A stretch of 64,000 nt of DNA from an uncultured bacterium (GTDB lineage: Bacteria > Muiribacteriota > Ozemobacteria > Ozemobacterales > Ozemobacteraceae), in the NCBI GenBank assembly GCA_964428355.1, contig CAYRYU010000009.1, positions 13,043 to 77,042 on the forward strand, in the 5' to 3' direction. The notes under the pieces are model-generated. The model made no database searches. It was given only the letters and a program-made list of their open reading frames with translations, and was not told the DNA's origin. Of the stretch, positions 13,925-55,411 are shown piece after piece. A program made the translations under genes and the position numbers. Within the stretch, counting starts at the first letter, position 1. Each line of letters starts with the position of its first letter.

Positions 13925-14719
13925 TTGAAACGACGGGTCTTCTCGCTGATGATGTCGGTCGTCGTTTTGGCCGCCTCCGCCGTCTTGGGAGGACCATACG
14001 GGTCTGAACGACAATCCCCCTCCCTTGAGACGCTTCATCTCAACGACGCCATCCGGGCAGGAAAGACCGGCGAGGTCCGGGCTCTCCTCGACCAGGGAGC
14101 CGATGTCAACGCCCTCTTCGACATCGACGGCCCCCCCCTCCACGTCGCGGTCCGGGCGAGAGAGAGCCAGGGAGAAACGATCGCTTCGACCGCGGCCAAG
14201 CGCGCACACATCGAGGTCGTCCTTCATTACCTCGACGAAAAGATTTTCCGGCCCGATGATTCGGACGGTCGGGGGGTTCCCATAATCCATCACGCGGTCA
14301 TTTCCAATTCCCCCGCCCTGCTGAAAGCGCTAGCTTCCGCGGGGGCCGATCTGAACCGCAGGGAAAAGTGGCAAGGCTACACGCCCCTCCTGCGGGGTAT
14401 CGCGGCCGGAATGAAAGACGCAACATACTGCCTCATCGACCTCGGAGCCGATCTGAACGCCTCCGCCAGGGGAGGGGCAGTTTCCCCCCCGGAGGAGGAA
14501 GGACGCACCCCCCTTCACCTTGCCGCGCTCATCCACGACGTGCAACTGGTGCAACGCCTGCTTGACCGCGGGGCAGACCCCAACGTCCGGAACGGGGCGG
14601 GGAAAACCCCTCTGGGGGTAGCGAAGGAGTTCCGGAAGAGGAGGACCTCGTTCTTCCGCTGGAAATCGGAGTATGACGGAGTGATATCGCTCCTGAAGAA
14701 CCGGGGCGGAGTTGAATGA
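13925..14719 (+). CDS. Exported ankyrin-repeat protein (signal peptide plus ~6 ANK repeats)
   Basis: N-terminal hydrophobic signal (MKRRVFSLMMSVVVLAASAVLG) followed by ANK motifs (…TPLHLAA…G…LL..GAD.N…). Confidence 0.8.
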   Translation: MKRRVFSLMMSVVVLAASAVLGGPYGSERQSPSLETLHLNDAIRAGKTGEVRALLDQGADVNALFDIDGPPLHVAVRARESQGETIASTAAKRAHIEVVLHYLDEKIFRPDDSDGRGVPIIHHAVISNSPALLKALASAGADLNRREKWQGYTPLLRGIAAGMKDATYCLIDLGADLNASARGGAVSPPEEEGRTPLHLAALIHDVQLVQRLLDRGADPNVRNGAGKTPLGVAKEFRKRRTSFFRWKSEYDGVISLLKNRGGVE

Positions 14720-17385
14720 CCCCTCCTCGAGCCTTTTTGGTTCCTCTCATGATCCTGAATCTCTTGTCGGGCGACCTCCAAAGCGTTCGCGGGGAGGACG
14801 GGGAAGGGGTGAAGACGACGGTGACCCCAATCGGCGACGGAGTTTTCATGACGACGATAGAATTCAAACCCGGCAGGAAAAGACCCGATCCGAGCACTCT
14901 CTTTCCGCTTCACAATGCCGCCAGGGATGGAAACCTCGAGCGCTTGGTCGGTCTGGCGACCGGCGGGTGCAACCTCCGGAGGAACGATTTCGAGAACCGG
15001 ACTCCCCTTCACCATGCGGCCATGCACGGCAAAACCGAAATCGCCCGGCTCCTTCTGGATAAAGGCGGAATGAGCGACCAGGCCGATCTGGTGGGAAACA
15101 CCCCCCTTCACTACGCCCTCGCCACCGGTGCGGCCGATCTCGTCCGGATCCTCCTCGATGCTGGAGCCGATCCGAAAAAGGTCGGATCCGATGGCAACAC
15201 CTGTCTGCATCTCGCTGCCAGGTCGGGAATGGCGGATTTGGTCGGCCTATTGCTCTCGCAAGGTGCCGATCCGCGGCGGCTCAACGCGAAGCAGGAGTCT
15301 CCCCTGCTCTCGGCTGTCCGAAGCGGGAATCTGCAAGCCGTCCGCCTGCTCCTCGACGCGGGTGGCGATCCCGAAGTCCCCGACCGGAGCGGGACAACCC
15401 CACTGTCCGCCACCGCGGAAAAGGATCTTCCCGAGATCGCCCAAGAGCTCCTTTCCCGCGGAGCATCCGCGAGTTCGCGACTTCCGGGCCGCCGGAATCC
15501 CTTCGATATGGCCCTGGAAAGCGGCTCCATCCGGATGGTCCGCCTCATTGCGGCGCGGGACGGCCGGCTTCTTTCGGACTCCTACGAGGGCGAAACCTCC
15601 CCCCTTCATCGGGCCTGTCGAAAAGGGAACCTGGAATTGGCCCGGTATCTTCTCGAGCAGGGTGCCTCGATCAACGGAAGGGACCATTCAGGCAACACCC
15701 CACTTCATGAAGCCGCCGCGTGCCGGGATGCGGCCCTCGCCGAGTTCCTGATCGACCGGGGCGCGGACATCGAAGCTCACGGCGGAGAAGACGCCACGCC
15801 CATCCACGAGGCCGCCCGGCAGGACTTTCCCGCCATGATCCGATTGCTCATTTCCAAGGGGGCGAGCCCCCGGGGCACGATGACCTACGGGCAGACCGCC
15901 CTCCACGTTGCCGCAGAGGCCAGGGCCGCATCGGCGACGGAAGCCCTGCTCGAGCTGGGCTTCGATCCCACCACTCCCGACAGCAAGGGAAACACCCCGC
16001 TCCATCTTGCCGCCAGATACGGCACGAAGCCGATCTGCGAGAGTCTGCTCGCAGCCGGAGGCCGGACCGACCTGAAGAACGCCGAAGGGTTCGACGTGTT
16101 CATGATGGCGGCGCAGAATTCCGACAAGACTCTGGGAGATGCGCTTCGCGCCCACCCCGTCTCACCCACGCCTTCGCCGGTTCCCGCTTCTCCTGCCGGC
16201 GGTTCTGCCGGGTACCCACTTCACTCGGCGGTCGAAAACGGGAATCCCGATCTCATCGAGTATTTGTTGAAACATGGCACGCCGGTTAACGCGAAAGATG
16301 CGCAGGGAATGACGGCGCTCAACAGGGCGATGGATTTCTGCCGACCGGAGATCGTCCGGTTGCTGCTCGATCACGGAGCCGACCCGAACGCCCCCGGCCG
16401 CGCGGGCCGGCCGCCTCTTCACAACGCCGCCATGGACGGTTACGTCGAGGTCGCCCGGCTCCTCCTCGATCACGGCGCGGACATCGACCGCCCCGGCCTG
16501 CGGGGAGTGAGGGCGGTTCACGAGGCGATCTTCTGCAACCGTCCCGAGATGCTCGAGTTCCTCATCGAACGGGGAGCCGACATCCGGAAAGCCGCCCCGG
16601 GCGGCCTGACTCCCATGATGGCGGCGGCTTCGGTCGGAGCCCGCGACCTCATCCGGATACTGGTCAAGCATGGGGTCGAACCCCTGGCGGCGGGTGAAGG
16701 CGCGGAAACTCCGCTCTACACAGCAGCCGCAAATGGAAAGACGGAGGCGGCGAAGTCGCTGATCGAGCTGGGGGCGGACCCGAACCTCCCCGGGCCCGGT
16801 GGAAGGACCCCCCTTCACCTAGCCGCCCTCCTCGGAAACACGCAACTCATCGACCTTCTGTTCGAGAAGAAGGTCAGGGTCGACCCGGTGGATTCCCGGG
16901 GTCGCATCCCCCTCCACGAGGCCGCTGGGTGTTTCCGCCACCTCGTGACCGAATTCTTCCAGAGCGACCCCGATCACTGGGAGAATCGCGCGCGGGAAGC
17001 CTACTTCGAGTTCCAGCTCATGCTCATCACCAGACCTCATCCGGGAATGCTGGAATCCATCGACCGGCTGCTGAAAGCGGGTTCCCCTCTCGACGCAGCG
17101 GATGCCTCGGGGGCAACCCCCCTCCACTTCGCCGTCCTCGGCGGAGAACCGGAAGCGGTCGAGCGGTTGGTGGCAAGCGGGGCGAATCTCCTGACGAAGG
17201 ACAAGGCCGGCCGGACTCCCCGGGAATTGGCCCGCCACCTTCTCGCGAATCTGTCGAACAACCGGAAGACCGCGGGACCCCGCCTGAACGGGCCTGAAAA
17301 CCAGATTCTCGCCGTCCTGGAAGATCGGATGAAGCAGATCGTGGAAAAACTGGGGGTCTTGGAGAAGGCCCCGCAACGCCGATGA
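14716..17385 (+). CDS. Large ankyrin-repeat protein (889 aa, more than 20 ANK repeats, N-terminal signal-like segment)
   Basis: Repeated TPLH.AA…G….LL..GAD motifs throughout. 4-nt overlap with the upstream ankyrin gene. Confidence 0.85.
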   Translation: MTPPRAFLVPLMILNLLSGDLQSVRGEDGEGVKTTVTPIGDGVFMTTIEFKPGRKRPDPSTLFPLHNAARDGNLERLVGLATGGCNLRRNDFENRTPLHHAAMHGKTEIARLLLDKGGMSDQADLVGNTPLHYALATGAADLVRILLDAGADPKKVGSDGNTCLHLAARSGMADLVGLLLSQGADPRRLNAKQESPLLSAVRSGNLQAVRLLLDAGGDPEVPDRSGTTPLSATAEKDLPEIAQELLSRGASASSRLPGRRNPFDMALESGSIRMVRLIAARDGRLLSDSYEGETSPLHRACRKGNLELARYLLEQGASINGRDHSGNTPLHEAAACRDAALAEFLIDRGADIEAHGGEDATPIHEAARQDFPAMIRLLISKGASPRGTMTYGQTALHVAAEARAASATEALLELGFDPTTPDSKGNTPLHLAARYGTKPICESLLAAGGRTDLKNAEGFDVFMMAAQNSDKTLGDALRAHPVSPTPSPVPASPAGGSAGYPLHSAVENGNPDLIEYLLKHGTPVNAKDAQGMTALNRAMDFCRPEIVRLLLDHGADPNAPGRAGRPPLHNAAMDGYVEVARLLLDHGADIDRPGLRGVRAVHEAIFCNRPEMLEFLIERGADIRKAAPGGLTPMMAAASVGARDLIRILVKHGVEPLAAGEGAETPLYTAAANGKTEAAKSLIELGADPNLPGPGGRTPLHLAALLGNTQLIDLLFEKKVRVDPVDSRGRIPLHEAAGCFRHLVTEFFQSDPDHWENRAREAYFEFQLMLITRPHPGMLESIDRLLKAGSPLDAADASGATPLHFAVLGGEPEAVERLVASGANLLTKDKAGRTPRELARHLLANLSNNRKTAGPRLNGPENQILAVLEDRMKQIVEKLGVLEKAPQRR

Positions 17386-18259: not shown

Positions 18260-20302
18260 ATGCAACCAGACATCGCAGTTGGAAGAATGCTTTTGTTCGT
18301 CCTCGCGGCGTCCGCGCTCGTTTTTCCGATCCAAACGGCGTGGGGCCAGGGTTTTGACGAAGTGAAGGAGTATATCGACCTCCGGGACGAACTTTCGGCG
18401 GTCAAGGATGCGCTCCAGAAGGGTCTCACAGAGGAACCAGGTTCAACACTTCTCAAGAATCCCGATATCGAAAGCGCCCTTGCAGGAAAGCTTGTTTCCG
18501 TGGAAAACCGGATCAGGAGCCTCAGCCTGGGCAGGAGTCCCCTTTCAACCTACTATCAGGAAAAGTTGCGGAGCCAGCTGAATGATTGCCGGGTTCTTTT
18601 CCCGCATTTCGTAAGAAGGATGGCCCTGGGGTTGCGTCAGGCAGTCGCATCTGCTCCAAATTCCCTGGGAATGCCGGTTCCCCGCGCAATTCCCCAACCA
18701 CCCGTCACTTTCGTCATCCCCAAAGGCCCGGCCATCCCAACGGTTTTCGCCACCCTGGCCAGCACCCCCGCCGCTTCACCGGCCGCTCCGTTGGTCGAAA
18801 CGTCCGTTCCGGTCCAGGCACTTCCACCCGGGGTCCGGCCCCCCGAAAACCCTTACAGGCAGCTTTCCCCGCAGCGGAAAAGGGAGTATTTCCGCCAGCG
18901 GAAGGCTTACTTCCAGCCCATAGGAGGGCGGATTTCCCCTCACACCCGGATCATCCCGATCCCAAAGCCTCCCCTTGTCGTCGCCTCCAACACCCCTCCG
19001 AAACCCGCGACACCTCCGGGGGCGCACATCCCCCTTTCCGCCGGGCTTGGTGTTCCAAGAACTCCGAAGGCCGTTCCTCCGGTTCAGGTGGCTTCGGCCC
19101 CGCTAAGGGCAGTCGGCCCAATCCCCCCCCGTCCGCCCGCTCCGGGAACCGCAGGCCTGTCCGGCCCGGGAACGCCCCCGGCGATCGTCCCCGTCACTGC
19201 TGCGTCGATGACAACCACCGCTGTGAAACCGCCCCCAAAAGCCTCGTTTTCCTTCCCAACCCTCCCTCCGCCTCTCGAAAGGGCAGCGGCCACCATCACT
19301 CCACTTCAACCGTGGAACGGCAAGGATCCCCAGATCAGAGAGACCCCGGGGATGCGCCCCCTTGCCATCATGATCGAGAACCACAACCAAGCCCGCCCGC
19401 AGACAGGCCTGGAGGAAGCCGAGGCCGTTTTCGAAATCCCCGTTGAGGGTGGAATAACGAGGTTCATGGCCCTTTTCTACCATGTTCTCGACAAGGTCGG
19501 CCCCGTCCGAAGCTGCCGGGAATACTTCGTCGACCGCGCGCTGGAGGTAAACCCCCTTTATGTCCATTGCGGAGGAAGCCCCAGCGGATACAAATATCTT
19601 GGCGAATCGAAGGTTTTCGCCATCGACGAGATCAGCAACGGGAAGCCCTTCTTTCGGGACATGACCAGGAAAGCCCCACACAACCTCTATACCCGTGCCC
19701 AATCGTTGATCGATGTAATGAATCTGAAGTTTCCGATGCAGCTCCCTTATCAGAAGCTTCCCGTCCTCTATGGGGAAAGCCCCACGGTCTCACAGACCCC
19801 ATGCAATGGGGTCGCGATCAGGTATCATGGCAACTACACGACAGCCTATGTCTTCAACCCGCGACGGAACCAGTACGATCGATACATGAACGGACAACAC
19901 CATATCGACCGCGTAACATCACGTCCCGTTTCGGTTGGAACCGTCGTCGTCCAGGAAGCCCTGATGAAAGTCGTCGATGACAAGGGCCGCCAGGACATCG
20001 ATTTCATCGGAAACGGCCGGGCATGGATTCTCGCCCGCGGAACCGTTTTCCCCTGCACCTGGCGAAAGACCGCGCCCCGCGAGTTCACGCGGTTCTTCGA
20101 TCTGCAGGGCCGCCAGGTCGTCTTCTCGAACAAAGGATCGGTTTGGTTCCAGGTGGTTTCCCCCCAGGAACCGGTCGTCTTTTCCCCCCCCCTTCCCGTC
20201 CTACCGACAGCAATAGCGGTTTCTGCGCCCCAACCCGACAGACCCGCCTTGCAGGCCCAAACCCAGCCGACGGCAGCCTCCCAGCCTTCGGCAATACGCT
20301 AG
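18260..20302 (+). CDS. Secreted DUF3048 (YerB-like) protein with a long proline-rich linker
   Basis: Signal peptide, a ~250-aa Pro-rich low-complexity region, and a C-terminal DUF3048-like region (…PLAIMIENHNQARPQTGLEEAEAVFEIPVEGGITRFMALF…). Confidence 0.6.
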   Translation: MQPDIAVGRMLLFVLAASALVFPIQTAWGQGFDEVKEYIDLRDELSAVKDALQKGLTEEPGSTLLKNPDIESALAGKLVSVENRIRSLSLGRSPLSTYYQEKLRSQLNDCRVLFPHFVRRMALGLRQAVASAPNSLGMPVPRAIPQPPVTFVIPKGPAIPTVFATLASTPAASPAAPLVETSVPVQALPPGVRPPENPYRQLSPQRKREYFRQRKAYFQPIGGRISPHTRIIPIPKPPLVVASNTPPKPATPPGAHIPLSAGLGVPRTPKAVPPVQVASAPLRAVGPIPPRPPAPGTAGLSGPGTPPAIVPVTAASMTTTAVKPPPKASFSFPTLPPPLERAAATITPLQPWNGKDPQIRETPGMRPLAIMIENHNQARPQTGLEEAEAVFEIPVEGGITRFMALFYHVLDKVGPVRSCREYFVDRALEVNPLYVHCGGSPSGYKYLGESKVFAIDEISNGKPFFRDMTRKAPHNLYTRAQSLIDVMNLKFPMQLPYQKLPVLYGESPTVSQTPCNGVAIRYHGNYTTAYVFNPRRNQYDRYMNGQHHIDRVTSRPVSVGTVVVQEALMKVVDDKGRQDIDFIGNGRAWILARGTVFPCTWRKTAPREFTRFFDLQGRQVVFSNKGSVWFQVVSPQEPVVFSPPLPVLPTAIAVSAPQPDRPALQAQTQPTAASQPSAIR

Positions 20303-20316
20303 AAGGGAGTTTGGCG

Positions 20317-21267
20317 ATGTCGGTTTCCGACCAGAAACGTGGACCCCGGGAAAAAGGGAGTTCCAAAACATCCTCAGAACCCAGGTTTGGCGCGATCGGC
20401 GTCTTCGGCCTGCCGAACTGCGGAAAGAGTTCGCTGGTCAACGCCCTGGTCGGGGAGGCAGTTTCGATCGTTTCCCCGCGACCCCAGACCACCCGCCGGA
20501 GGGTCATGGGAATTCTGACCGTCGGAACCGACCAGATGGCCTTTTGCGACACCCCCGGGCTCCACCGCCCACGCAACAAGCTGGACGAGTTCATGGCCGC
20601 CGAGGTGGACTCAACGCTGGAAGGCCTTCACGCCGGCCTCTACCTCGTCGACCTGGGTTCCCCGCGCCCCGACGAGGACTCCTCTTTCCTGAAGGCAATC
20701 TCGGGGCGGTTGGACGGACCCCTTTTCCTTGTCTTCAACAAGCGCGACCTGGTCAAGGACGCCCAGCTCGGCCAGATTGCACAAAGCTACGAGGGTTTGG
20801 CTTCGTTCGCGGGGGAGTTCCAGGTCTCCGCACTGAAAGGAACGGGGCTGAAGGAACTCCTTCGCCGGCTCCGGGAGGTGATCCCCCCCGGGCCCCACGG
20901 CTTCTCCGAAGACGATTACACTTCCCTGACCGAGCGAGAGATCGCCGAAGAGGTCATCCGGGAGGAGATGCTCAAGCTCTACAGGCATGAAATCCCCCAT
21001 TCGACGGCTGTCGTGATCGAGGAGTTCAAGGAACGGGAAAACGGGAAGACCTACATCGAAGCGAATCTTTTCCTCGAAAAGGAAAGCCAGAAGAGGATCG
21101 TCATCGGACGTGACGGAACCGCTCTCAAGACCATCGGCACCAATGCACGGGAAAGGTTGAATCACATTCTCGGACGGGATATCTTCCTCCAACTCTGGGT
21201 AAAGGTCCGTGCCGGATGGCGGAAAAGCGCGGAGTGGGTCAGGAGGCTGGGATACAAGCCGACGTGA
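20317..21267 (+). CDS. era: GTPase Era
   Basis: G1 GLPNCGKSSL, G3 DTPG, NKRD and a C-terminal KH domain. Start reassigned to ATG 20317 (GAAGGGA Shine-Dalgarno) from the track's 20023. Confidence 0.9.
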   Translation: MSVSDQKRGPREKGSSKTSSEPRFGAIGVFGLPNCGKSSLVNALVGEAVSIVSPRPQTTRRRVMGILTVGTDQMAFCDTPGLHRPRNKLDEFMAAEVDSTLEGLHAGLYLVDLGSPRPDEDSSFLKAISGRLDGPLFLVFNKRDLVKDAQLGQIAQSYEGLASFAGEFQVSALKGTGLKELLRRLREVIPPGPHGFSEDDYTSLTEREIAEEVIREEMLKLYRHEIPHSTAVVIEEFKERENGKTYIEANLFLEKESQKRIVIGRDGTALKTIGTNARERLNHILGRDIFLQLWVKVRAGWRKSAEWVRRLGYKPT

Positions 21268-21462: not shown

Positions 21463-23085
21463 ATGAACTCCATTCTGATGATCATCGTCGCAGTCATAGT
21501 CATTCTTCTGGTATTCATCATGTTCTCCCTGGACGACCAGGAAGAGGTCCCCGCGGAAGACCCCTCCTCCCCCGAACCCGCCGGGGAATCATCGGAACTC
21601 CATTCCCAGGCCCCTTCGAGCGGGGACGGCCCTCCGCCGCCCGCCACCGCCCCTCCTACGCCGGCCGCCATCACCCGGACCCCACCCCCCGTGGCCCTTG
21701 ACACACCTTTGACCACGGAAACCGGCTCGAAAAAGGATCTGAAGTTCCGGACCCTGATCAATGACCAGCTCCCCGCTCCAACCGCCTGCTCCAGAAGAAA
21801 TTCGGTGGTGGTGGTTCCCCAGATCCGTTATCCCGAGGAACTACATTCCGACGGGGCGCTTCTGGTAAAGGTCCTCGCGGAGGCGGAACAGATACTCTCT
21901 CCCGAGAAGGCGGCATTTCCGTTCAGCTCCTTCGCCTCCAACCAGGGAGACCGGTTGTGGCTCTTCGGATTCGACGAGGACCGCGATGATGCGGTTTTCG
22001 AGGCTATCGTGACCGCGGTGGACGCTGTAAAGCGTTTCAAGAAGGCCTTGGAAGGGAATCAGACTCTCCTGGGCGCAAAAGTCCGCCTCTCCATAGGTAT
22101 CTCGACCGGAGAGATTAACCGGATCAGCCGTGGGCCTCTCGGGCCGGTTTCCCATTCCGGGAAAGCCATTTATCTTGCAGAAACCCTTGCCGAAGCCTCG
22201 GGGGATTTCAAGATCTACGTCGACCAGGAGATCCATCGGCAGAGTCTTCCTCTCTTCGATTTTCGCGAGTGGAAACCCACGAAGCTGCGGGAGCCCCTTC
22301 CCCCGGTCCCGATCTACGAACTGGTCGGGTGGAACAAGAAAGAGGAGATCTTCGCTTTCACCAGCCATCAGGAGGTTTACGCACGACGGGCGGTGGCCGT
22401 GGCCTTCCGGTACCTTGACTTCGACGATATCTCCCCACTTCTGAACCTTCTCGCCGACCCGGATGAAAGAGTAACTCTCGAGACGCTAGACACGATAGCC
22501 GAGATCGGCGACGACCGGGTCCTCGGGATTCTCAAGAAAATCCTTCCCGAAGCCAAGAACTCCCATATCCGCAGCGTCATCATTCACGCACTGGGAAGCA
22601 TCGGCCGTGAGGAGATCCTTCCCGTGCTTCTCGCTTCCACGAAGGATGTAAACTGGCAGGTACGTTTCCAGGCTGTCCAGGCTCTGTTCTCGGTGTGCAA
22701 AAAGGACGCTGACAAACACCTCCAGGACCTGGTGCGAGACGAGGACGGAGCGGTTCGGGCCGTGGTCCACAAGATCCTCTATCTCAATCACCCCGACCCG
22801 GAGCATCTGCAGATCCTGGGGGAACTGATGTTCGACCTTTCCCTGCGGGCCAGGAAAGCCGCGATCGAAGCCCTGATCGAAATCGGGGAGGAGCCGGCCC
22901 TTCTCGCCGTCGTAAACGCCTTCCCGGAGCAGGAAAACGACCTGAAACGGCTCATTCTCAGATTGCTGATGAATTCGAGATCCAAGAACCTCTACCGGAT
23001 CTTCCTTGACCTGTTTGAAAAATCCGATGAGCGTTCCAGAGGAGATATCGTGGCCGCGGTAAGACGGGCCAACTTGATGGGGTGA
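21463..23085 (+). CDS. Membrane-anchored protein with a Pro-rich linker, a degenerate class-III nucleotidyl-cyclase-like segment and C-terminal HEAT/PBS-lyase-type repeats
   Basis: N-terminal transmembrane helix. The central segment …AKVRLSIGISTGEINRISRGPLG… resembles the cyclase homology domain. The C-terminus has repeated …HALGSIGREEILPVL… HEAT-like units. Confidence 0.55.
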   Translation: MNSILMIIVAVIVILLVFIMFSLDDQEEVPAEDPSSPEPAGESSELHSQAPSSGDGPPPPATAPPTPAAITRTPPPVALDTPLTTETGSKKDLKFRTLINDQLPAPTACSRRNSVVVVPQIRYPEELHSDGALLVKVLAEAEQILSPEKAAFPFSSFASNQGDRLWLFGFDEDRDDAVFEAIVTAVDAVKRFKKALEGNQTLLGAKVRLSIGISTGEINRISRGPLGPVSHSGKAIYLAETLAEASGDFKIYVDQEIHRQSLPLFDFREWKPTKLREPLPPVPIYELVGWNKKEEIFAFTSHQEVYARRAVAVAFRYLDFDDISPLLNLLADPDERVTLETLDTIAEIGDDRVLGILKKILPEAKNSHIRSVIIHALGSIGREEILPVLLASTKDVNWQVRFQAVQALFSVCKKDADKHLQDLVRDEDGAVRAVVHKILYLNHPDPEHLQILGELMFDLSLRARKAAIEALIEIGEEPALLAVVNAFPEQENDLKRLILRLLMNSRSKNLYRIFLDLFEKSDERSRGDIVAAVRRANLMG

Positions 23086-24475: not shown

Positions 24476-24631
24476 TGTGTAGACACCCGCATCGTTCCTG
24501 TTTTCACGAAGGTGGTTTTTTTTCACGCATTTTTCCCCTGTTTTTGTGTTTTTTTGGCACTTTTTCGGCTCGTGTGTGAATTTTCAGCACGCTTTTACCA
24601 GAACAGTCGTGTGTACAGGCCGATTTCGTAT

Positions 24632-24647
24632 TGGCACGCAAAATGCA
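24632..24647 (+). promoter_or_regulatory. Sigma-54 (RpoN) promoter: TGGCACG-N4-aTGCA
   Basis: tggcacgcaaaatgca: GG at 24633–34 and GC at 24645–46 with the canonical spacing. Lies 48 nt upstream of the ptsN ATG, which has an AGGAGAAGG Shine-Dalgarno. A weaker TGGCAC…GGC sits at 24556–24571. Confidence 0.7.
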
Positions 24648-24694
24648 TAATCTTCAGGGAACACTGAATTAGAAGCGCGGCAGGAGAAGGACAT

Positions 24695-25144
24695 ATGATT
24701 TCGGAGCTGCTCCAGGAAAACTTCATCGAACTGAATTTGTCTGCCACCAACAAGAGTGAGGCGATCGATCACCTTTCCGATATGCTCTCCACCTCCGGAA
24801 AGGTCAACGACAGGGGCCACTTCGTAAAAGCGGTCCTCGAGCGCGAAAAGCTCGGAAGTACGGCCATTGGGGCAGGCATCGCAATTCCCCATGCGCGCGC
24901 CAATACGGTGAACGAGGTTTCCATCGCCTTTGCCCGCTCCGGATCGGGGATCGATTTCAACTCGGTGGACGGAGATCCCGTTCATCTCATCTTCCTGCTG
25001 GCGGCCCCCATCGAGTCCGGGAGTCTTTATCTGAAGCTCCTCGCCCGGATCTCGAGACTCCTCCGCTACCAGGATCTCATTGACGACCTCAAGAAAGCGA
25101 CGAGCAAGGAAGAGGTTATCCGAATCATCGCCTCCAAGGAATGA
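24695..25144 (+). CDS. ptsN: PTS EIIA-Ntr (nitrogen-regulatory IIA, PtsN-like)
   Basis: 149 aa PTS_EIIA_2 fold with the active-site His region (GIAIPHAR). Confidence 0.85.
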   Translation: MISELLQENFIELNLSATNKSEAIDHLSDMLSTSGKVNDRGHFVKAVLEREKLGSTAIGAGIAIPHARANTVNEVSIAFARSGSGIDFNSVDGDPVHLIFLLAAPIESGSLYLKLLARISRLLRYQDLIDDLKKATSKEEVIRIIASKE

Positions 25145-25166
25145 CCTCCTCCTCCCGGTGGTCAGC

Positions 25167-25643
25167 ATGACGACGATGCCAGTTGAGAAATCCGAGCAAT
25201 CCTCCGTCCATTTCTCCTCCGAGGGGTTGACGGTCCACATGCGGATCCCCTCCGATTGGGTCTACCTGAACAACGCCATCCTGACCCTTCGCGAAATCTG
25301 CGACCATCTTGATCTTCCCTCCCGCCAATCCAACCGGATCGTCCTCGTCCTCGAGGAGGTCGTCATGAACGCCATGGAGCATGCCTATTCCGGCAGCTCC
25401 GGGCTGATCGACCTCCAATTCTCCGTTTCCGGAAACGAATTCATCCTGGTCGTGGAAGACTTCGGCCAGGGCATCCCCGATGGCCTCCCCATCGATCTCC
25501 TTAACGAAGAGGAAATCCTCTGTGATCGAGGTCGGGGCCTGATGATCGCCAAGGGAATCGCCGACCGGGCGCTGGTCCAGAAAACCTCCGGGGGTGGCAC
25601 CCGCGCGACGCTTCTGTTCCAACTCAACGTCCTGGAGACATGA
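25167..25643 (+). CDS. Anti-sigma regulatory factor-type Ser/Thr kinase (HATPase_c; RsbW/SpoIIAB-like)
   Basis: N-box EEVVMNAMEHA and G-box VEDFGQGIP…DRGRGL. Start taken at ATG 25167. The track ORF starts at 25080 and overlaps ptsN. Confidence 0.7.
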   Translation: MTTMPVEKSEQSSVHFSSEGLTVHMRIPSDWVYLNNAILTLREICDHLDLPSRQSNRIVLVLEEVVMNAMEHAYSGSSGLIDLQFSVSGNEFILVVEDFGQGIPDGLPIDLLNEEEILCDRGRGLMIAKGIADRALVQKTSGGGTRATLLFQLNVLET

Positions 25644-26113
25644 TGCCGAACGAGGAACTCAGAGAGAGAACCCTGCTTATCATCAAACCCGATGGGGTCC
25701 AGAGAGGGGCAATCGGAAAGATCGTTTCCCGGTTCGAGGAAAAGGGTTTCAAGATCGTGGGGCTGAAAATGCTTCGCATCTCCAACGCCCAGGCCGAGAA
25801 GCAATATGCCTGTCACAAGGGAAAAGTCTTCTACGATTCCCTTGTCAAGTTCATGACGAGCGGTCCGTGTGTGGCCATGGTCCTCGAAGGCCGGCATTCC
25901 ATCCAAATCTGCCGGAAGATGATGGGGGCGACCGACCCCGACAAATCCGAGCCCGGTACCATCCGGGGGGACATGGCTCTCGACATCAAATACAACATGG
26001 TCCACGGCTCCGACTCCGAGGAAAGTTTCAAGCACGAGATGCCCATCTACTTCCGCCCCGAAGAGCTGATGGAATACGAGTTTTCCAACAAGGAATGGCT
26101 TTACTTTTTCTGA
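25640..26113 (+). CDS. ndk: Nucleoside diphosphate kinase
   Basis: 157 aa. …ERTLLIIKPDGVQRGAIGKIVSRFE…NMVHGSDS… with the active-site His. Confidence 0.95.
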   Translation: MMPNEELRERTLLIIKPDGVQRGAIGKIVSRFEEKGFKIVGLKMLRISNAQAEKQYACHKGKVFYDSLVKFMTSGPCVAMVLEGRHSIQICRKMMGATDPDKSEPGTIRGDMALDIKYNMVHGSDSEESFKHEMPIYFRPEELMEYEFSNKEWLYFF

Positions 26114-26226: not shown

Positions 26227-27864
26227 ATGAAAATAAAGAAAGCGTTCCTGATTCTCCTTGCAGTGGGAACCCTTGTTGTTGGTGTATTGGCGGGCTTCCT
26301 ATTGGGAACCACCTCCGGTCTGACCACGATCATCTCCTTCACCGACGGTTTTCTCGGTAATCCCCCCGGGTTCAACCTTTCCCTGGGCGAGTTCTCAGGC
26401 TCGGTCTGGAATGGAATCAGGATCGCGACCCTCTCTGGGACGCTCCCCGGAGAAAGGCTCCAGTTCGCTGCGGAGGGCTTGGAGGTTTCCCCCGGCCTGA
26501 CATCGATCTTTGGGGGAAGGTTGCGTATCGTAAGCCTCTCGTGCAAATCGTTCATGATCGAGGGCGTTCCGCGCCCGGGTTGGTTGGAGGGAATCCCGGA
26601 TATTCCCCCATATGGGTGTTTTGTCGGGGCACCCCCAGTGGTGGAACTGGGCGAAGCCCATCTGGATGTTTTCCGCTGGTTTCCTGCGGCTTCCGGCCCC
26701 ATCGAACTGCAACTCACCGGACTGGAAATTGGAAATCCCCCTTCGGGTCGGGCTCCACACCCCCTCAGATTTTCCTGCGCGGCCCTTTTCCGGAATCGCC
26801 CCCTTTTCACCGCATCCTTCACGGGGAGGCTTGGAATCCAGAAAGCCGAGGCGGGAGGAAGTTTCACCGCCAGACTTCTCGATCAACCAGTCACCGGGGA
26901 GATCAACGTCGGGCGCAAGAAGTCGGGGTTCTCTGCCAGCGGGGTCACCAACCCTGCCTCTTTCGACCTGACATCGATCTTCCGGTGGCTTTCCCCGCTA
27001 TGGATCAAGGAGTTTCCCTTCGGATTCGACGGGTTCCTCGATTTCGGCGGTTCCTGGGTCTTCGATTCGGACCTTGGCTTCAGCGGGAACCTCGGCGGGG
27101 AGATCCGGAAGACCCGTCTGGTCGCTCAAGGACTTTTCCTGACGATTTTCGAACTCAACTCGAAATGGAAGCTTTTCAACGGAAAGCTCGACTTCGAAGA
27201 TTCGGGAAGCACTTTTGCCGGGTTTCCTGCCAAGCTTGCCGGGTCACTTCGGCTCCAGGATTCCGCCCCCCCCACAGATCTGGTCTTCGAGGTCGCCAGT
27301 CTTCCGATGCGGGAATTCATCCAGAATCTTCCATGGCTCCTCACCAGGAATCTCCAGCTGGCTGCGATTTCCGGAACCGGAAGCCTTTCCGTCCACCTCT
27401 CGGGAACCCCACCGGATCTTCTGGCAACCGTTCGCCTTCCGGAAATCGACATTGTCAATCTGGGAACACCAGCAAAACTGGACGGGACACTGACGTGGCG
27501 GTGGAGCTTCCCCCAGCCGCCCTCGTGCCATGTTTCCTGCTCCTGGGTTGCGACCGCGGCAGTTCCCCTTGTTTATTCCGCAGTCCAGGACGGTCGAAGC
27601 CCGTTGATTACCACCCTTCTCCCTCCAGTGAGGTTCCAGGGCGTGTTCACCGGGCCGTCGCTGATGGAGGGGGCATTCCAGGGAAGCATCGTTTCCGCCG
27701 GGGCCAACTACTCGTTTTCCAGCCCCATGTTCAACGGAAAATGGACCGGATTCGAAGTGACTCAGGCTGACGGGGAAGGCCGGCCGATCCCGCAGGGGAC
27801 CCGCTTTCAGGCAGGATCGGATGCCCCCCCGCTCGGGTTCCTGCTTCTCCTCCTGGGCAAGTAG
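26227..27864 (+). CDS. Membrane-anchored hypothetical protein (AsmA-like/DUF748-like) with a hydrophobic C-terminal tail
   Basis: 545 aa with an N-terminal transmembrane anchor, a Gly/Ser/Phe-rich body and a …PPLGFLLLLLGK C-terminus. Family assignment is tentative. Confidence 0.5.
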   Translation: MKIKKAFLILLAVGTLVVGVLAGFLLGTTSGLTTIISFTDGFLGNPPGFNLSLGEFSGSVWNGIRIATLSGTLPGERLQFAAEGLEVSPGLTSIFGGRLRIVSLSCKSFMIEGVPRPGWLEGIPDIPPYGCFVGAPPVVELGEAHLDVFRWFPAASGPIELQLTGLEIGNPPSGRAPHPLRFSCAALFRNRPLFTASFTGRLGIQKAEAGGSFTARLLDQPVTGEINVGRKKSGFSASGVTNPASFDLTSIFRWLSPLWIKEFPFGFDGFLDFGGSWVFDSDLGFSGNLGGEIRKTRLVAQGLFLTIFELNSKWKLFNGKLDFEDSGSTFAGFPAKLAGSLRLQDSAPPTDLVFEVASLPMREFIQNLPWLLTRNLQLAAISGTGSLSVHLSGTPPDLLATVRLPEIDIVNLGTPAKLDGTLTWRWSFPQPPSCHVSCSWVATAAVPLVYSAVQDGRSPLITTLLPPVRFQGVFTGPSLMEGAFQGSIVSAGANYSFSSPMFNGKWTGFEVTQADGEGRPIPQGTRFQAGSDAPPLGFLLLLLGK

Positions 27865-39088: not shown

Positions 39089-42000
39089 ATGCGCAAGAGC
39101 CTTTTCGTCCTGATCTTCATCATTTCCGCCACCCTTCTTTTCCTCCAGGTGGGATGCAGGTTTTTCGGCCTTGGAACGGTCGACCAGGAGATTGCCCTTT
39201 CCCCCGAAAGCCTTGCCCGTGAGGACGGACACGCGCGGGTTTCATTCAAGATCGTCCTGCCTGGGGCTCCGAAGAATTCCCCCAGCCCCGCGGTCCGCGC
39301 TTCGGCCGGAACGGCCTCGATCACCTTCCGACTGACCCTTCTCGACGCAGGAAATCCTCTCGCTTCCCCAACCACCCTTGTAAAGTGGGCGCTGGTAGAC
39401 TCTTCGGGAACCGCCAGCATCGTTTTTTCCGATCTGCCTATCCGAACAGTGGTCGGGGAAATGATCGTGTTCGGAGGTTCGATCGGAGGCCGAACGAACT
39501 TCCACGGAGGCGCGGACCTCATCGACGGAGACAACGAAATCGAACTGAGTCCCCAGGGTTCCGGCCATCGTTCGGACGTCCTGGCCCAGGTCATCCTCCA
39601 GATCGCGGCGATTCCGGAGATGCTGATCCGGCTTCCACACAACCTGGCTGCCTCAGTCATGAATGCCGGCGCAGGTTATCTTGACCCTGGAACGAACATG
39701 CTGACAGCTTCTCCGACCGCGGGCCTCTTTACCGAGATCGTCGACCGCGTACTCACGGCGGGGGTTTCAGCACCCACCTACACCCGGATCGCCATGTCCG
39801 ACGGTGGAATGTCCATCCAGGGCAGCGGACCGGCAACCTGGACCAGGGCGACCTCCCAGATCTGGGGGGGAACGCCGCACGCAGTCGAGTTCTTCCGCGC
39901 CACCCGGATCCTTCGCCACGGTTTCGGGGGATTCGGGTACGTTCTTTGGGAAAGCGGCGCGGGTAACCGGTTCGGCCTCACGCGGATCGACTCCTCGACC
40001 GGGGACCTCCTCAACTACCTTGTCCTGGATGGCTCTCCCGGCCCCTGCGCCCCGATGCCCGATGACGGGCTACTGATCGGGGGGAGCATGGACTCCCTCC
40101 CGCTTCTGGTCCGCTGGACCGGACGTGAAAACGCATTTCTGACTCCCTCCTCTCTTTCTTCATTCTCAAAAGCATGGGCCCATTCGTTTTCGGAAGTGAA
40201 ACCGGACGTGAAGATCCCCGAGCCGGGGGTGGATTTCCTGCTTTTCCAGCCCGGGTCCGAACGAATCTACTGCGGGGTCTGTGATCCCAGGACTGGTCAG
40301 ACCAGGCATTTTGCGGTCGACCCCTCGAACGGGAAACCGGATCCCGAGGAAAGTCATGGAATCCCCATCTGGGCGACCCCCTCGGACCGTGAAGTAATCG
40401 TCTTCTGGGAAACGGGGGCCGGGGTCGTTTCCAGCAACCTCTACTGGGCAACCCAACCATTCGACCTTCCTTCCCCACTGGCGACAAAGGTCGATGGAGC
40501 CGTTTCCCCCTTCCATCACCAGGGACTCGACAACGGAAGGGCATACTACTACCGTGTCACCACGATCGATGGAGGGGGTCTCGAGTCAGCTCCCTCGTCA
40601 ACAGTAACATCGGTCCCCGGGGACAACACGCCCCCCATCGTCACAGAAGTATTCCCGGCCGAGAACGCCTTGGAAGTCCCTGTGGAAACCACCATCGGGG
40701 TCATTTTCAGCGAATCCATGGACGGGGCGACCCTTGTCCCGGGAAGCATAACCCTTTGCAGCGGAACCGCATGCATCCCTGGCAATGTGACATTCGGGCC
40801 GGGAGCCACCAACGCCACCTTCACTCCCGACGCGGCACTGGCCTACAACACCACCTATACCGCCACCATCGGCCTTGGAGTCAAGGATCTCGCGGGGAAT
40901 CCCCCTGCTGCCGAAAAGTCCTGGAGCTTCACGACCCGCAACGTTCCCGATACAACACCCCCGATCGTGGTTTCCATGACTCCCGCTTCGGGGGCGGGAG
41001 GAATATCGACCGGGACATCGGTTACCATGGGTTTCAGCGAGCCGATGGACCCCTCTTCACTTTCCACCTCGACGATTTTCCTGGCAAGCGGGACAAAGGT
41101 CTTTCAGGGCCTCATAACCGTCAGCCCCGACCTAACGGTCGCGACCCTCACCCTGGAGTTTCCCCTCGCATATTCCGCACAATACAGGATGACGGTAAAG
41201 GGAACGGTCGCGGACATTGCTGGGAACCAGATGGGATCAGACCATTCCTGGATTTTCTCCACCGTCCCAGCCCCCGACACCGTTCCACCAGTGATCACGA
41301 CGATCGATCCGCCCGAAAACGCGATCGAAGTCGGAATCGGAAAGGTGATCACGGTCGGTTTCAGCGAGCCGATGGATGCCTCGACCCTGGTACCCGGCAA
41401 CCTCTCCCTTGCAAGCGGGTCCACCGAACTCGATGGGACCGTGAGCGTAAGCCCGGACCTTTCCACAGCCACTTTCACCCCAGCGGCACCCCTCGAAACC
41501 GGAACAACCTACACCTTTACCGTCGGAAGTTCCGCCAGGGATCTCGCCGGCAACGGGCTTTCACAACCCCGGAAATGGAACTTCACGACATCGGCCGATC
41601 CCGATACCACACCCCCCACTATCGTTTCAGTTTTCCCTGAAGAGAACTCGATCGATTTTCCGGCAACAGGGGTGATCGCTGTCCGCTTCAACGAACCTAT
41701 CGAGGCCCCTTCGCTTTCCTCCGGAACCTTCATCGTCTCCGATGGAGCGAGCCCTGTCCCGGGCGCAATCCTTCTCGGTCCCGACCGGACGATGGCTACC
41801 TTCACACCCACAAGCCCCCTTCCATCGGGAAGACAACTTTCGGTCACAGTCACGACGGGTGTTAAGGACTCTTCCGGAAATGCGCTTTCAAAGGAGAAAA
41901 CCTGGACATTCACGACGATCCATGCCTCGGATACCACCCCCCCGACGGTCGTTTCCGTCTCTCCCCTCGAGAACTCGACAGGAATCGGCACCCAGAGTCT

Positions 42001-45000
42001 GCTCATCATCTCTTTTAGCGAGGCTCTGGAACCTTCCTCGGTATCCACGATTTCGGTGATTCTCTCCAGCGGCGCAACCGGAATCGACGGGGCGGTAACC
42101 CTGGCCTCCGGCGGAACCCTCGTGACCTTCGTTCCTGCCGCCCCCCTCGCATATTCGGTTCAGTATTCCGCGAGAGTGAAGTCCGGGATCCGGGATCTGG
42201 CAGGGAACCATCTGGAGGCTGAAAAAACCTGGGACTTTACGACCATCGCAGTTTCCGACACGACCCCGCCCACGGTGGTGGAGGTCTTCCCCTCCGAGAA
42301 CGCGGTCCTCGTTTCGACGGGAACGGTTGTTTCCGTAACGTTCAACGAACCGATGGACCTTTCCACCCTCTCGACGGAGACCGTGACCCTTTCCAGCGGT
42401 TCCATCCCGGTCGCGGGAACGTTGTCCTTCAGCGGGGACAGGATGACGGCAACCTTCACCCCGTCCGCTTCGCTCGCAGCTGAAACCAACTTTACCGCTA
42501 CCGTGAAAACCGGCGTCAAGGACGAAGCGGGAAATTCCATCCAAGCGGTGAAATCCTGGACTTTCACCACCGCTCCGGTTCCCGACACAACTGCCCCGAC
42601 GGTTCTTTCGGTCGATCCCGCGGAGAATTCCACCGATCAGGGAATCGGCCGGGTGATCACTGTTTGCTTTTCGGAGCCCATGGACCAGACGACGATATCC
42701 ACATCGACTTTCAGCCTGGCGAGCGGTTCGGTCCCGGTTGCCGGAACGATCACGATCGGCACCGACGGAGCCTGCGCCACGTTCACCCCAGACCTGCCTT
42801 TGGAATACGGCTCGGCCTATACGGCATCGGTCACGACTGGAGTCCGTGACCTCGCAGGGAACCCACTCCAGGCATCCAAGGTGTGGTCCTTCACGACCTC
42901 GACCGTGACGGACACCACCCCGCCCGTGGTTGTTTCGGTTCTTCCGTCGGAATCCGCCGAAGGATGCGAGATCGGAACGAAGCTGACGATCACGTTCAGC
43001 GAAGGAATGGATCCCACGTCGATCTCATCCGCCAGCATCACCCTTGCGAGCGGAACCACCGATATCCCGGGAACGCTTTCCATCAGCCCGGACCGGACGA
43101 TCGCCACCTTCAGCCCGGATTCCCCGCTGGATTACGTCACAACCTACACTGCCACCGTGAAAACTACCGCCCGTGATGTGGCGGGAAACCCGCTGGCCGC
43201 AGAAAAAGCATGGAACTTCACCACCAGGACCCCGGATCTGGCACCCCCCACGGTGGTCTGGGTCCTTCCAGCGGAAAATGCGGTCGGAGTGGCCACCCAG
43301 ACCGCGCTGTGCATCAGCTTCAGTGAAGCGATGGACCCCACCTCGCTTTCAACGGCAACCATCAGCCTTTCCAGCGGGGTTCAGGGAATCGAAGGCTCGG
43401 TAACCGTTTCGCCGGATGGGACCATGGCCACCTTTACCCTGCTCGCCGCGCTCGATTACTCGTCGACCCTTTCTGCCGCAATCGGGACGGGAGCCAGGGA
43501 TCTTGCAGGGAACCCCCTCTCCGCCCCGAAAGCATGGGTTTTCAGCACGATGCCCGCCCCCGACACGATTCCGCCCTCGGTCACCTCGGTGGCTCCGGCA
43601 AGCGGCGCGATGGATGTCCCCCTTTCATCCGCCCTCTTCATGGAATTCAGCGAACCCATCGCGTCCTCTTCCCTCGCCTCGGCGGTTTCACTCGTAAGGG
43701 TTTCCGACGGTATGCCGGTGCCGCTCGATCAGCCGACATTCGGTTCAGGATATCTCCTTGCGACGATCACAATTGGAGAAGAGCTCATCCGTTCGAAGGA
43801 ATACGAGATAAGGGTTTCGGGCCTCCGCGACCTCGCGGGAAATTCCCAGACCCTGGATTTCGTCAGTCGTTTCGATACCGTCAACGACCGGTTCGAGGAC
43901 AACGGGACGGCTTCCACCGCAGCAACGCTCGTGGGAACGCTGGGAGATCTTTCTATCAAGCCCGCTGGGGAATTCGACTGGTTCAGGCTCACTCTGGCAA
44001 CGCATTCGGGCCTCGTCATCGAAACCGACGGCGAGGGTGGAGGGGATTCCTTGCTGGCCCTCTATTCGGATCCTTACTCATCCCCGGTCGCTTACGATGA
44101 CGACGGGGGACCGGGCAACTACTCCCGGATCAGCCTTTCCTACCTGGCGAAGGGAACCTACTTCGTTAAGGTCTGGTGCTATTCTTCCTCGGCCGAAATC
44201 GCGAGCTACCAGGTCTCCCTGACGACTTCGGTCCATCTCCCGACCGTGGATTCGACCGTCCCCGCTAGCGGGGCAACCGGTTTCCCGGCCACCTCGCCGG
44301 TTACGATAACCTTCGTCGAGCCGATGGATCCTTCTTCAATCATCCCTGCGAACATCACCCTCTCTTCGGGAACCGCAGACCTGCCGGGAACGATTACGTT
44401 GGCCCCCGACAATCGAACCGCCACCTTCACCCCGACTTCTATGCTTCCGAGTCTTTCGCTGATCACGCTGAAAATCGGAACCGGGGTCAAGGACGAGGAA
44501 GGGAACGCCCTCGCTTCAGACGACATCCGAACCTTCACCACCGCCGCACCGGATTCCACGGGCCCCGCTGTCGTGGAAACAACTCCTGGAAGCGGCTCGA
44601 CCGGAATATTCCTCGATTCATCGCTCACGATTGGGTTCAGCGAATCCATGGATGCGTCGACCATTGCACCAGGGGTGACACTTGTCCGGGTTTCCGACAG
44701 CAGCCCGGTCCTCCTTTCGGATCCGGTTTTCAACGGATCGAAAACCGTCGCCACCTTGACTCCGGCCACCGCCCTCGCCGGGTCGACCGAATACGAGGCG
44801 CGGATTTCCGGATGCAAGGACCAATCAGGTCTTTCCCTGGCTTCCGATTCGGTCTGGCGTTTCACGACCATGCCGCAATACGATCCCCTCGAACCGAACG
44901 ATACCTGGTCCAGAAGCGCATCCATCACGGGGACGATCGGAAGTCTTTCCATGCAACCCGCGGGGGATTATGACTGGTTCAGGTTTGACGTGGACTCGAT

Positions 45001-53473: not shown

Positions 53474-53476
53474 ACC

Positions 53477-54778: not shown

Positions 54779-54784
54779 CCCGAA

Positions 54785-55411
54785 ATGTCATCCAAGCTCA
54801 AGAAAACGCGGCCCGAACTGCTCAAACAGCGAAGGGCGCTCACCCTCTTCAAGAGGTATCTTCCGACCCTGGTTCTGAAGAAACAGCAGATCCAGATGGA
54901 GATCCTGAAAGTCAGGACCGAGCGCGGCCGCCTTCTCGAGGAGATGAAGAAGCGCATTTCCAAGGTGGAGCGATGGGTTCCCCTGTTCAGCGAAATGATT
55001 CCCGGCCCGGTGACCGAGCTGGTGCGTGTGCGGTCGATACAACGGGGAGAGAAGAACGTCGCCGGGATCGTCCTGCCGACGGTCAAGGACGTTTCCTACG
55101 AAGTGAAGCCGTACAGCCGGTATTTCACGCCCCCATGGACCGACCTCGCCGTCGATTTCGTCAAGGCCCTCCTGGAACTTCGTGAACGCACGCGCATTCT
55201 GACCGAGCAAGAGCGCCTGCTCCAGGCGGAACTCCGGAAAGTTACACAGCGGGTGAACCTTTTCGAGAAGGTGATGATTCCGCGAACGGTCGAGAACACA
55301 CGCCTCATCCGGATCCATCTGGGTGAAGAACAGGTGGCCGGTGTCGGGCGCGCCAAGATTGCCAAATCCAAGACGGTCGAATCCCCCGCGGGGATGGAGG
55401 TCCAGTCGTGA
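54785..55411 (+). CDS. atpD: V/A-type ATPase subunit D
   Basis: 208 aa. …LLKQRRALTLFKRYLPTLVLKKQQIQMEI… coiled-coil rotor subunit. Confidence 0.9.
   Translation: MSSKLKKTRPELLKQRRALTLFKRYLPTLVLKKQQIQMEILKVRTERGRLLEEMKKRISKVERWVPLFSEMIPGPVTELVRVRSIQRGEKNVAGIVLPTVKDVSYEVKPYSRYFTPPWTDLAVDFVKALLELRERTRILTEQERLLQAELRKVTQRVNLFEKVMIPRTVENTRLIRIHLGEEQVAGVGRAKIAKSKTVESPAGMEVQS

Follow-up and report, generated by a model that had tools for sequence, protein, structure and literature searches.

A predicted sigma-54 control region conserved ahead of PtsN-like EIIA and RsbW-like protein genes in Riflebacteria

The DNA described here is a stretch of 64,000 nucleotides, termed the window, from an uncultured bacterium of the Ozemobacteraceae (GenBank assembly GCA_964428355.1, contig CAYRYU010000009.1). 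It contains a gene cluster in the order HEAT-repeat protein, enhancer-binding protein (EBP), EIIA of the phosphotransferase system (PTS), RsbW-like protein, nucleoside diphosphate kinase (ndk) and a protein of 545 amino acids (aa), with a spacer of 219 nt between the end of the EBP gene and the EIIA gene (Table 1). The spacer carries a putative sigma-54 promoter preceded by palindromic repeats that are candidate upstream activating sequences (UAS). A gap of 22 nt separates the EIIA stop codon from the ATG of the RsbW-like gene, and the start of ndk overlaps the stop of the RsbW-like gene by 4 nt. The order EBP-EIIA-HATPase-ndk is kept in 16 distinct loci of a main clade and in five distinct complete clusters of a sister clade, and sequence comparison of 27 loci indicates conservation of the promoter, of the gene order and of the candidate UAS sites. 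A first-pass annotation, made from the letters of this DNA, had described a sigma-54 promoter driving ptsN and an RsbW-like kinase gene next to an NtrC-type activator; much of that description stands, with corrections that are given below.

The names given to homologous proteins assign the organism to Candidatus Riflebacteria / Ozemobacteraceae. The analysis covers the window and related loci (labelled L0xx) from the uncultured phylum Riflebacteria, which were gathered by contig look-ups for HATPase homologs, by a scan of species-representative genomes and by a metagenome scan. Eleven of the 16 main-clade loci are species representatives of the genome collection; the sister-clade loci (L039–L053) come from the metagenome scan. 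Promoter conservation was assessed in the 27 Riflebacteria-type loci with readable upstream DNA, i.e. the 16 of the main clade, 10 of the sister clade and the outlier L035. Protein assignments are based on Pfam searches of ~40 open reading frames (ORFs) of the window, NCBIfam equivalog cut-offs and profile searches of the PDB, and for the 545-aa protein also on an AlphaFold2 model searched with Foldseek.

Table 1. Features of the gene cluster and its control region; positions are counted from the first letter of the window
Feature	Positions	Strand	Basis or remark
Membrane-anchored HEAT-repeat protein	21463-23085	+	Pfam HEAT_2 5e-32
NtrC-family response-regulator EBP: receiver, AAA+, Fis-type helix-turn-helix	23090-24475	+	Pfam
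Third, farthest-upstream GTG-N9-CAC palindrome GTGGTTTTTTTTCAC	24512-24526	.	Sister clade also has a third copy, at -121/-122
Distal UAS palindrome GTGTTTTTTTGGCAC	24546-24560	.	Centre 79 nt upstream of the T of TGGCA; includes TGGCAC 24555-24560
Proximal UAS palindrome GTGAATTTTCAGCAC	24576-24590	.	Centre 49 nt upstream of the T of TGGCA
TGTACA box	24612-24617	.	Conserved; role unexplained
Putative sigma-54 (-24/-12) promoter TGGCACGcaaaaTGCA	24632-24647	+	Motif, position, conservation; start near 24658 predicted from the -12 convention
Putative ribosome-binding site GGAGAAGG of the EIIA gene	24683-24690	+	GGAG at the same place in orthologous loci
Stand-alone PtsN-like EIIA, PTS_EIIA_2 fold, 149 aa, His66 in GIAIPHAR	24695-25144	+	Pfam 1.7e-41
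RsbW/SpoIIAB-like GHKL protein, HATPase_c_2, 158 aa	25167-25643	+	Pfam 1e-17 (64.8 bits)
Nucleoside diphosphate kinase (ndk)	25640-26113	+	Pfam NDK 1.7e-55; NCBIfam equivalog (198.5 > 155)
545-aa protein, N-terminal membrane helix and long all-beta body	26227-27864	+	Possibly AsmA/TamB-like

The putative promoter, TGGCACGCAAAATGCA, has GG at 24633–24634 and GC at 24645–24646, and thus the correct GG-N10-GC spacing in a 12-nt register. It differs from TGGCACG-N4-TTGCW at a single position, as the first-pass annotation had read it, and it lies on the same strand as the EIIA gene and within ~200 nt of it; the distance to the ATG is 47 nt, where 48 nt had been given. It is also the sole site in the window with at most one mismatch. 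This single match is not significant by itself, since 28 of 100 shuffled versions of the 64 kb also contain one; with two mismatches allowed, the window has seven sites against 5.7 expected. Comparison of loci indicates that its significance comes from position and conservation. The motif TGGCAY-N6-TGC is found 33–62 nt before the start of the orthologous EIIA gene in 16/16 main-clade loci, in 10/10 sister-clade loci with upstream DNA and in L035. In an alignment of the 16 main-clade loci anchored at the motif, all 16 share the TGGCA and TGC bases, and the flanking columns are conserved at 30–60%. Besides its occurrence at the homologous place in the orthologous loci, the strict form TGGCAY-N6-TGCW was seen only once in ~330 kb of Riflebacteria-type sequence, inside a gene in L007. 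A search for sigma-70-like promoters between 21200 and 28000 gave none, and the spacer and untranslated region show no Rfam match up to E=1 and no RNA fold above shuffles.

Upstream of the promoter the window has three GTG-N9-CAC palindromes with an A/T-rich centre (consensus tGTGnAAAAAnnnCACa). The distal one is in the T-rich region that had been proposed to hold UAS sites, and the palindromes are conserved. In 15/16 main-clade loci the distal palindrome is centred at -78 to -85, and in 15/16 the proximal one at -49 to -57. Exact GTG-N9-CAC sites number 33 in the 16 main-clade upstream regions, with 0.63 expected and a maximum of five in 1000 shuffles. The whole window contains four such sites with A/T centres, three of which are in the spacer between the EBP and EIIA genes. 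Sister-clade palindromes are at -61 and -89, about one helical turn away from the main-clade positions, and those of L035 are closer to each other and farther from the promoter, persisting there though the EBP gene is not adjacent. Judged from these positions, the helical phasing fits a looping activator. The palindromes are likely to be EBP binding sites, and the adjacent EBP is presumably the protein that binds them.

One half-site needs comment. The first-pass annotation pointed to a second TGGCAC, 76 nt upstream of the promoter, as a weaker promoter-like element. The location in T-rich DNA is correct (24555–24560, 77 nt upstream), and the promoter-like nature is not: the corresponding -12 region reads cgGCt, and homologous loci have GTG-N9-CAC at this place, mostly without TGGCAC. 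The sequence is therefore best read as the right half of the distal palindrome, i.e. a UAS half-site, since most orthologous sites lack TGGCAC. As for the TGTACA box, TGTAC is found 17–22 nt upstream of TGGCA in 15/16 main-clade loci. In the sister clade it sits between the two proximal palindromes, and its position thus follows that of the UAS, not that of the promoter.

The gene directly upstream of the spacer does encode an activator of the NtrC type, as had been noted. Pfam domains are all above their cut-offs (Sigma54_activat, 1.3e-67, 227.2 bits; Response_reg, 2.9e-27, 95.5 bits; HTH_8, 6e-8, 32.7 bits), and AAA_lid_14 is also present. The protein scores below every NCBIfam equivalog cut-off (AtoC, 469.9 bits against 714; NtrC, 426.7 bits against 558.6), and therefore it is an unnamed member of the NtrC family and not an ortholog of a named EBP. 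Sixteen EBP orthologs show little or no variation in the Walker A motif GESGTGK, the receiver Asp residues and the recognition helix LGL(T/S)RFALRHQ, a pattern that indicates strong purifying selection. The nearly invariant recognition helix matches the invariant palindrome site.

It might be asked whether the promoter is activated by a different EBP, the adjacency of the local one being incidental, and in L035 and L053 the same promoter and palindromes do occur although no EBP gene is next to them. However, the 16 main-clade loci, and the six sister-clade loci whose flanking DNA extends far enough, have the EBP gene directly upstream, the palindromes start ~40 to 350 nt after its stop codon, and recognition helix and site are both invariant. 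An activator encoded elsewhere is thus decidedly improbable.

Control of the EIIA and RsbW-like genes by sigma-54 and the adjacent EBP, which the first-pass annotation had proposed, is well supported by the conservation across the 27 loci. We consider it very probable that a sigma-54 promoter, activated by the adjacent EBP from phased GTG-N9-CAC sites, drives the EIIA, RsbW-like and ndk genes and perhaps also that of the membrane protein. The 219-nt spacer would then be a complete sigma-54 control region. The response-regulator EBP encoded upstream would bind two palindromes with A-tract centres (three in the window) and, when phosphorylated and using ATP, would open the sigma-54 holoenzyme on TGGCACG-N4-aTGCA (24632–24647). 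Transcription would proceed from near 24658 through the EIIA gene, the RsbW-like gene and ndk, and possibly through the 545-aa gene, both the start and the end of this transcript being predicted.

Several observations weigh against such control. The -12 region reads aTGCA instead of TTGCA. The sigma-54 contact loop of the EBP, invariant in the 16 orthologs, is GAFTDA, a variant of GAFTGA in which the Thr at position 4 is kept; GAFTDA is among the variants that would maintain activation in EBPs of D. vulgaris (PMC4641369). No histidine kinase for the EBP was found nearby in any locus. Furthermore, rpoN is absent among the ~40 Pfam-annotated ORFs of the window, an RpoN-box regular expression gave no match in six-frame translations of ~450 kb of related sequence, and the hpf genes of L033 and L034 have no rpoN upstream; nor did the literature searched offer usable information on sigma-54 in Riflebacteria or Ozemobacter. 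The presence of rpoN in the genome is presumed.

That rpoN was not found in the scanned sequence, that shuffled DNA yields one promoter match per 64 kb in 28% of cases and that no strong terminator follows the EBP gene are all points in favour of another explanation, namely that TGGCAC-N6-TGCA is a chance match or the site of some other protein and that transcription of the operon begins at a sigma-70 promoter or continues from the EBP gene. This explanation is extremely improbable. The invariant bases are GG, GC and their neighbours, held at the exact 12-nt register in 27/27 loci while the surroundings drift; the region has no sigma-70-like site, and a conserved sigma-54-specific activator is encoded next door.

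The first gene of the proposed operon had been called ptsN, and here the result is different. The protein has the PTS_EIIA_2 fold (Pfam score 142 bits), and the solved structures nearest to it are those of PtsN from Neisseria, Burkholderia and E. coli. Its His66, within GIAIPHAR, aligns with the G(V/I)AIPH active-site His motif of those structures and is, as in PtsN, presumably the phosphorylated residue. Tyr112 aligns with the second His of their active site. The NCBIfam PtsN models give 90.7 bits (TIGR01419, cut-off 138.7) and 70.9 bits (NF008145, cut-off 221), and the gene follows that of an EBP and not rpoN or hpf. Among homologs there is a clear break: orthologs are 72–100% identical, after which a second Riflebacteria group, of 151 aa, appears at ~55%. 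This second paralog is encoded directly after hpf, the canonical ptsN position (L033:4264–5337, L034:7355–8456), and scores about the same against the PtsN models; in L034 an HprK gene lies 7 kb from it. One metagenome-assembled genome, GCA_012517355.1, has both EIIA genes (the operon in L017 and the hpf-linked paralog in L034) in addition to HprK. The EIIA of the operon is best described as a PtsN-like paralog whose identity as PtsN is not established by these comparisons. Rhizobia are known to have several PtsN paralogs in one genome (PMC3665714, PMC9239096).

A working sugar-specific role has also to be weighed, i.e. that EIIA is a fructose-type IIA protein and the operon an accessory to sugar uptake. 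The NCBIfam cut-off for the fruA IIA domain is indeed passed (122.3 > 103.5), and the database name is 'PTS sugar transporter subunit IIA'. However, there is no IIB or IIC gene in any locus, the closest solved structures are without exception PtsN, and the Tyr that replaces the second active-site His is conserved in both paralog groups. A sugar-uptake function is therefore very improbable.

EIIA is strongly conserved. It is 82–89% identical in cluster-type loci of both clades, with His66 invariant, and this holds even where the HATPase protein is only 50–60% identical; in the outlying L035 and L053 the EIIA identity is 72%. Ser110 distinguishes the operon EIIA from the hpf-linked paralog. As a Ser/Thr acceptor for the neighbouring kinase-like protein it was rejected: S110 is invariant also in the clade in which that protein has lost its kinase motifs, and no other Ser or Thr relaxes there.

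The second gene is a member of the HATPase_c_2 family, as Pfam confirms for what had been noted as an HATPase_c gene 22 nt after the EIIA gene. A family profile searched against the PDB finds RsbW (6m36, 3.7e-16) and SpoIIAB (3e-11) as best matches, with LOV-HK and PhyK weak. The window protein has intact N, G1 and G2 boxes (E64/N68, D98-x-G-x-G and G122-R-G, invariant in the family alignment A1). NCBIfam scores are far under the equivalog cut-offs (SpoIIAB, 34.1 bits against 135; RsbW, 32.8 bits against 145). The family is sharply bounded, with five clusters at E <= 1e-30 among 1.84 billion representatives, after which the score falls from 159 to 90 bits; several of the next matches are ~140 aa in length and align mainly with the N-terminal half.

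Two properties set this protein apart from RsbW and SpoIIAB. The Arg of helix 1 (R20 of SpoIIAB), which in SpoIIAB contacts the STAS antagonist as well as the sigma factor, is replaced in the aligned column by I, V, T, M or L across the whole family. The search for an STAS-domain or anti-anti-sigma partner that the first-pass annotation had advised was negative: neither an STAS nor a sigma factor gene is present among the scanned ORFs of the window or in any related locus.

The homolog of the sister clade is degenerate (~140 aa; L035:6502–6921 is also of this type), having lost the N-box Asn together with the His, the GxG of G1 and the DRGRGL of G2, and it keeps the N-terminal region hMRIPA..YL.NALLTL.GIC.HF. 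The metagenome scan shows it in the same slot, HEAT-EBP-EIIA-pseudoHATPase-ndk-545aa, in loci whose EBP is ~71% and whose EIIA is 82–86% identical to the window proteins. From the motifs lost, the sister-clade homolog is a pseudokinase that cannot bind ATP. Kinase chemistry is by the same token not the conserved function of the gene, because operon, promoter and palindromes persist in the sister clade without the ATP-binding motifs. The earlier description of the product as a Ser kinase needs correction accordingly. Helix alpha-1 is the most conserved part of active and degenerate forms alike, and the parsimonious reading of the alignments is that the RsbW-like protein acts by binding through its N-terminal helix region.

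EIIA is encoded immediately upstream of every full or degenerate RsbW-like member recovered with enough flanking DNA. In the literature searched no paper pairs EIIA-Ntr or PtsN with RsbW or anti-sigma HATPase proteins, and no precedent was found there for binding of EIIA-Ntr to an HATPase domain. By these comparisons the pairing is conserved, unusual and apparently undescribed, in agreement with the earlier remark that an HATPase protein is an odd partner for EIIA. We tentatively propose, giving it somewhat less than even weight, that EIIA and the RsbW-like protein are a binding pair in the layout of rsbV-rsbW, with a state that is set by PTS phosphorylation of His66 and not by a kinase. EIIA would take the place of the STAS antagonist, and phosphorylation of His66 by the PTS (HPr/NPr) would set the switch. 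A switch of this kind would explain why ATP binding decayed in the sister clade with EIIA equally conserved.

Two properties of EIIA must be set on the other side of the balance. No EIIA Ser or Thr changes in conservation between the kinase-active and kinase-dead clades, and L037 has EIIA without an HATPase homolog or the promoter motif.

These points raise the question of whether the two proteins are merely co-transcribed without contact, EIIA regulating unlinked targets in the ordinary manner of PtsN and the RsbW-like protein acting with an STAS protein and a sigma factor encoded elsewhere. That L037 keeps EIIA alone, and that EIIA is conserved equally with an active or a dead kinase beside it, both speak for this. 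In addition, the contacts of PtsN in the cases consulted are to the HisKA or GAF domain of KdpD and not to an HATPase domain (PMC9239096). On the other hand, EIIA-HATPase adjacency is strict wherever an HATPase member is found, even without an adjacent EBP or ndk gene, no locus has an STAS or sigma gene, and the contact Arg of helix 1 has given way to a hydrophobic residue family-wide. Absence of contact is a serious possibility, which we place distinctly below even.

A phospho-relay or split kinase is a further possibility. The HATPase protein would phosphorylate EIIA (at His66 or a Ser) or the EBP receiver, with Ndk completing a positive-feedback chain of phosphotransfer. All three operon products handle phosphoryl groups, the EBP receiver is intact and yet no locus has a histidine kinase, and HATPase_c_2 is the catalytic domain of some histidine kinases, in keeping with the weak LOV-HK and PhyK matches and the intact boxes of the window protein. 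Against this, the sister clade retains operon, promoter and a conserved EIIA with an HATPase homolog unable to bind ATP; ndk is missing from L051, L052 and L035; and the window protein resembles RsbW and SpoIIAB more closely than it does the catalytic domains of histidine kinases. We regard a relay as improbable.

Taken as a whole, the account of a sigma-54 control region combined with an EIIA/RsbW-like binding pair is the one we hold to be probable. A more far-reaching version is speculative and rather unlikely: the system may be a partner switch of a new kind, in which a PtsN-like EIIA replaces the STAS protein, His phosphorylation through the PTS operates the switch and leaves the kinase activity of the partner dispensable, and the RsbW-like protein restrains sigma-54 or its own EBP, giving a carbon/nitrogen-gated loop that is perhaps coupled to AsmA/TamB-like lipid transport in the envelope.

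The remaining genes of the cluster would extend the proposed operon. The ndk gene is in place in all main-clade loci and is counted as part of the operon, to which the 545-aa gene probably belongs as well. No terminator was detected between the operon genes and none that is convincing after ndk; since none is evident there, read-through of the transcript into the 545-aa gene is possible. The latter gene follows the module in nearly all loci, coming directly after the pseudo-HATPase gene in L051 and L052 and directly after the EIIA gene in L037.

The 545-aa protein has no Pfam or NCBIfam match. Its AlphaFold2 model (mean predicted local distance difference test score, 68.7) shows a membrane helix followed by ~30 beta-strands. 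The best PDB matches by Foldseek are LPD-3, a bridge-like lipid-transfer protein (9cap_A, probability 0.94), and TamB (9xdd_B, probability 0.84), at low TM-scores of ~0.2. On the strength of the model the protein is plausibly AsmA/TamB-like. It is fast-evolving, and the end of its gene overlaps a convergent FapA gene (27807–29324, minus strand) by 58 nt.

The HEAT-repeat gene ends 4 nt before the EBP start, and all loci with sufficient flanking DNA have this pair; the two are probably co-transcribed. As no histidine kinase is encoded near the EBP, the HEAT protein may serve the EBP as an input or partner. No Pfam match was obtained for its 216-aa N-terminal domain even at E=10, and the idea of a degenerate cyclase was rejected on the same result.

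The outlier L035, a low-GC relative, has the EIIA-pseudoHATPase pair without an adjacent EBP or ndk gene, and with the promoter and palindromes. The pair is preceded there by a divergent AsmA-like gene of 1497 aa (L035:1190–5683) and followed by a 1475-aa Ser/Thr protein kinase with beta-helix repeats (L035:7155–11582).

Elsewhere in the window, the gene of the Era GTPase, if taken at its longest ORF (414 aa, 20023–21267, plus strand), overlaps the end of a DUF3048 gene (18260–20302). The true Era start is probably internal, because orthologs are called at 298–311 aa. Two ankyrin-repeat proteins of 264 and 889 aa are encoded at 13925–17385, a 1659-aa protein with Vps62 and DUF7910 matches at 31578–36557, a 2701-aa ORF at 39089–47194 and a V/A-type ATPase operon at ~51006–57159.

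For decades, the link between sigma-54 and the PTS-Ntr has been one of gene neighbourhood only, that of rpoN-hpf-ptsN, and to our knowledge the molecular outputs of EIIA-Ntr are poorly defined. The present locus would reverse the link: an EIIA-Ntr-like paralog appears to be itself a target of sigma-54 and an EBP, and is tied to an RsbW-like protein across a phylum-level lineage. The promoter, the two phased palindromes and the near-invariant recognition helix make the cis-elements clean enough for heterologous testing. If EIIA antagonizes a GHKL anti-factor, partner-switching signalling would gain both a new input, the PTS phosphorylation state, and a new fold, and the decay from kinase to pseudokinase without loss of the module would be explained. 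If it does not, the locus would still define a regulon well for a phylum that has not been cultured and that anaerobic digesters commonly contain.

Several known systems offer points of comparison. Like promoters of the NtrC/AtoC/ZraR type (e.g. glnAp2), the control region has GG-N10-GC and at least two dyad sites ~75–110 bp upstream of the predicted start, helically phased, and the activator has the same receiver, AAA+ and Fis-type helix-turn-helix architecture. It differs from these systems in the GTG-N9-CAC site with an A-tract centre, in the GAFTDA loop, in an activator that is not an ortholog of a named EBP and in its new target genes.

The EIIA resembles PtsN of Proteobacteria, which is encoded in the rpoN-hpf-ptsN cluster, in its stand-alone EIIA_2 fold, the absence of a permease partner and the aligned GIAIPH motif. 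It is unlike PtsN in scoring below the equivalog cut-off, in being encoded behind a putative sigma-54 promoter and not beside rpoN, and in having Tyr for the second His; moreover, the hpf-linked position is here held by a different paralog.

The gene arrangement recalls RsbV-RsbW-SigB and SpoIIAA-SpoIIAB-SigF, where a small GHKL protein, which the present one matches in size and sequence type, is likewise encoded directly after a small phosphorylatable regulator and an alternative sigma factor drives the operon. Here, in contrast, an EIIA is found instead of an STAS protein, there is no sigma gene and the helix-1 Arg is missing. Unlike RsbW and SpoIIAB, moreover, the GHKL protein has lost its ATP-binding motifs in the Riflebacteria sister clade and scores far under their equivalog cut-offs.

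Control of PTS EIIA genes by sigma-54 and an EBP has a precedent in the LevR-type systems of Firmicutes (Francke et al. 2011, PMC3162934). In those systems the EIIA is of the mannose family and is encoded in full permease operons, and the EBPs have PRD and EIIA domains. The locus described here has an EIIA of the Fru/Mtl/Ntr family, no permease and an EBP that is a response regulator.

Lastly, in the NifL-NifA system a GHKL-domain protein is the anti-activator of a sigma-54 EBP. The RsbW-like protein is unlike NifL in that it has neither a PAS nor an H domain, and sequence kinship does not go beyond the GHKL fold. The likeness is one of analogy only: here too a protein of the GHKL fold, modulated by a small signal protein, could bind the EBP behind its own synthesis and restrain it.

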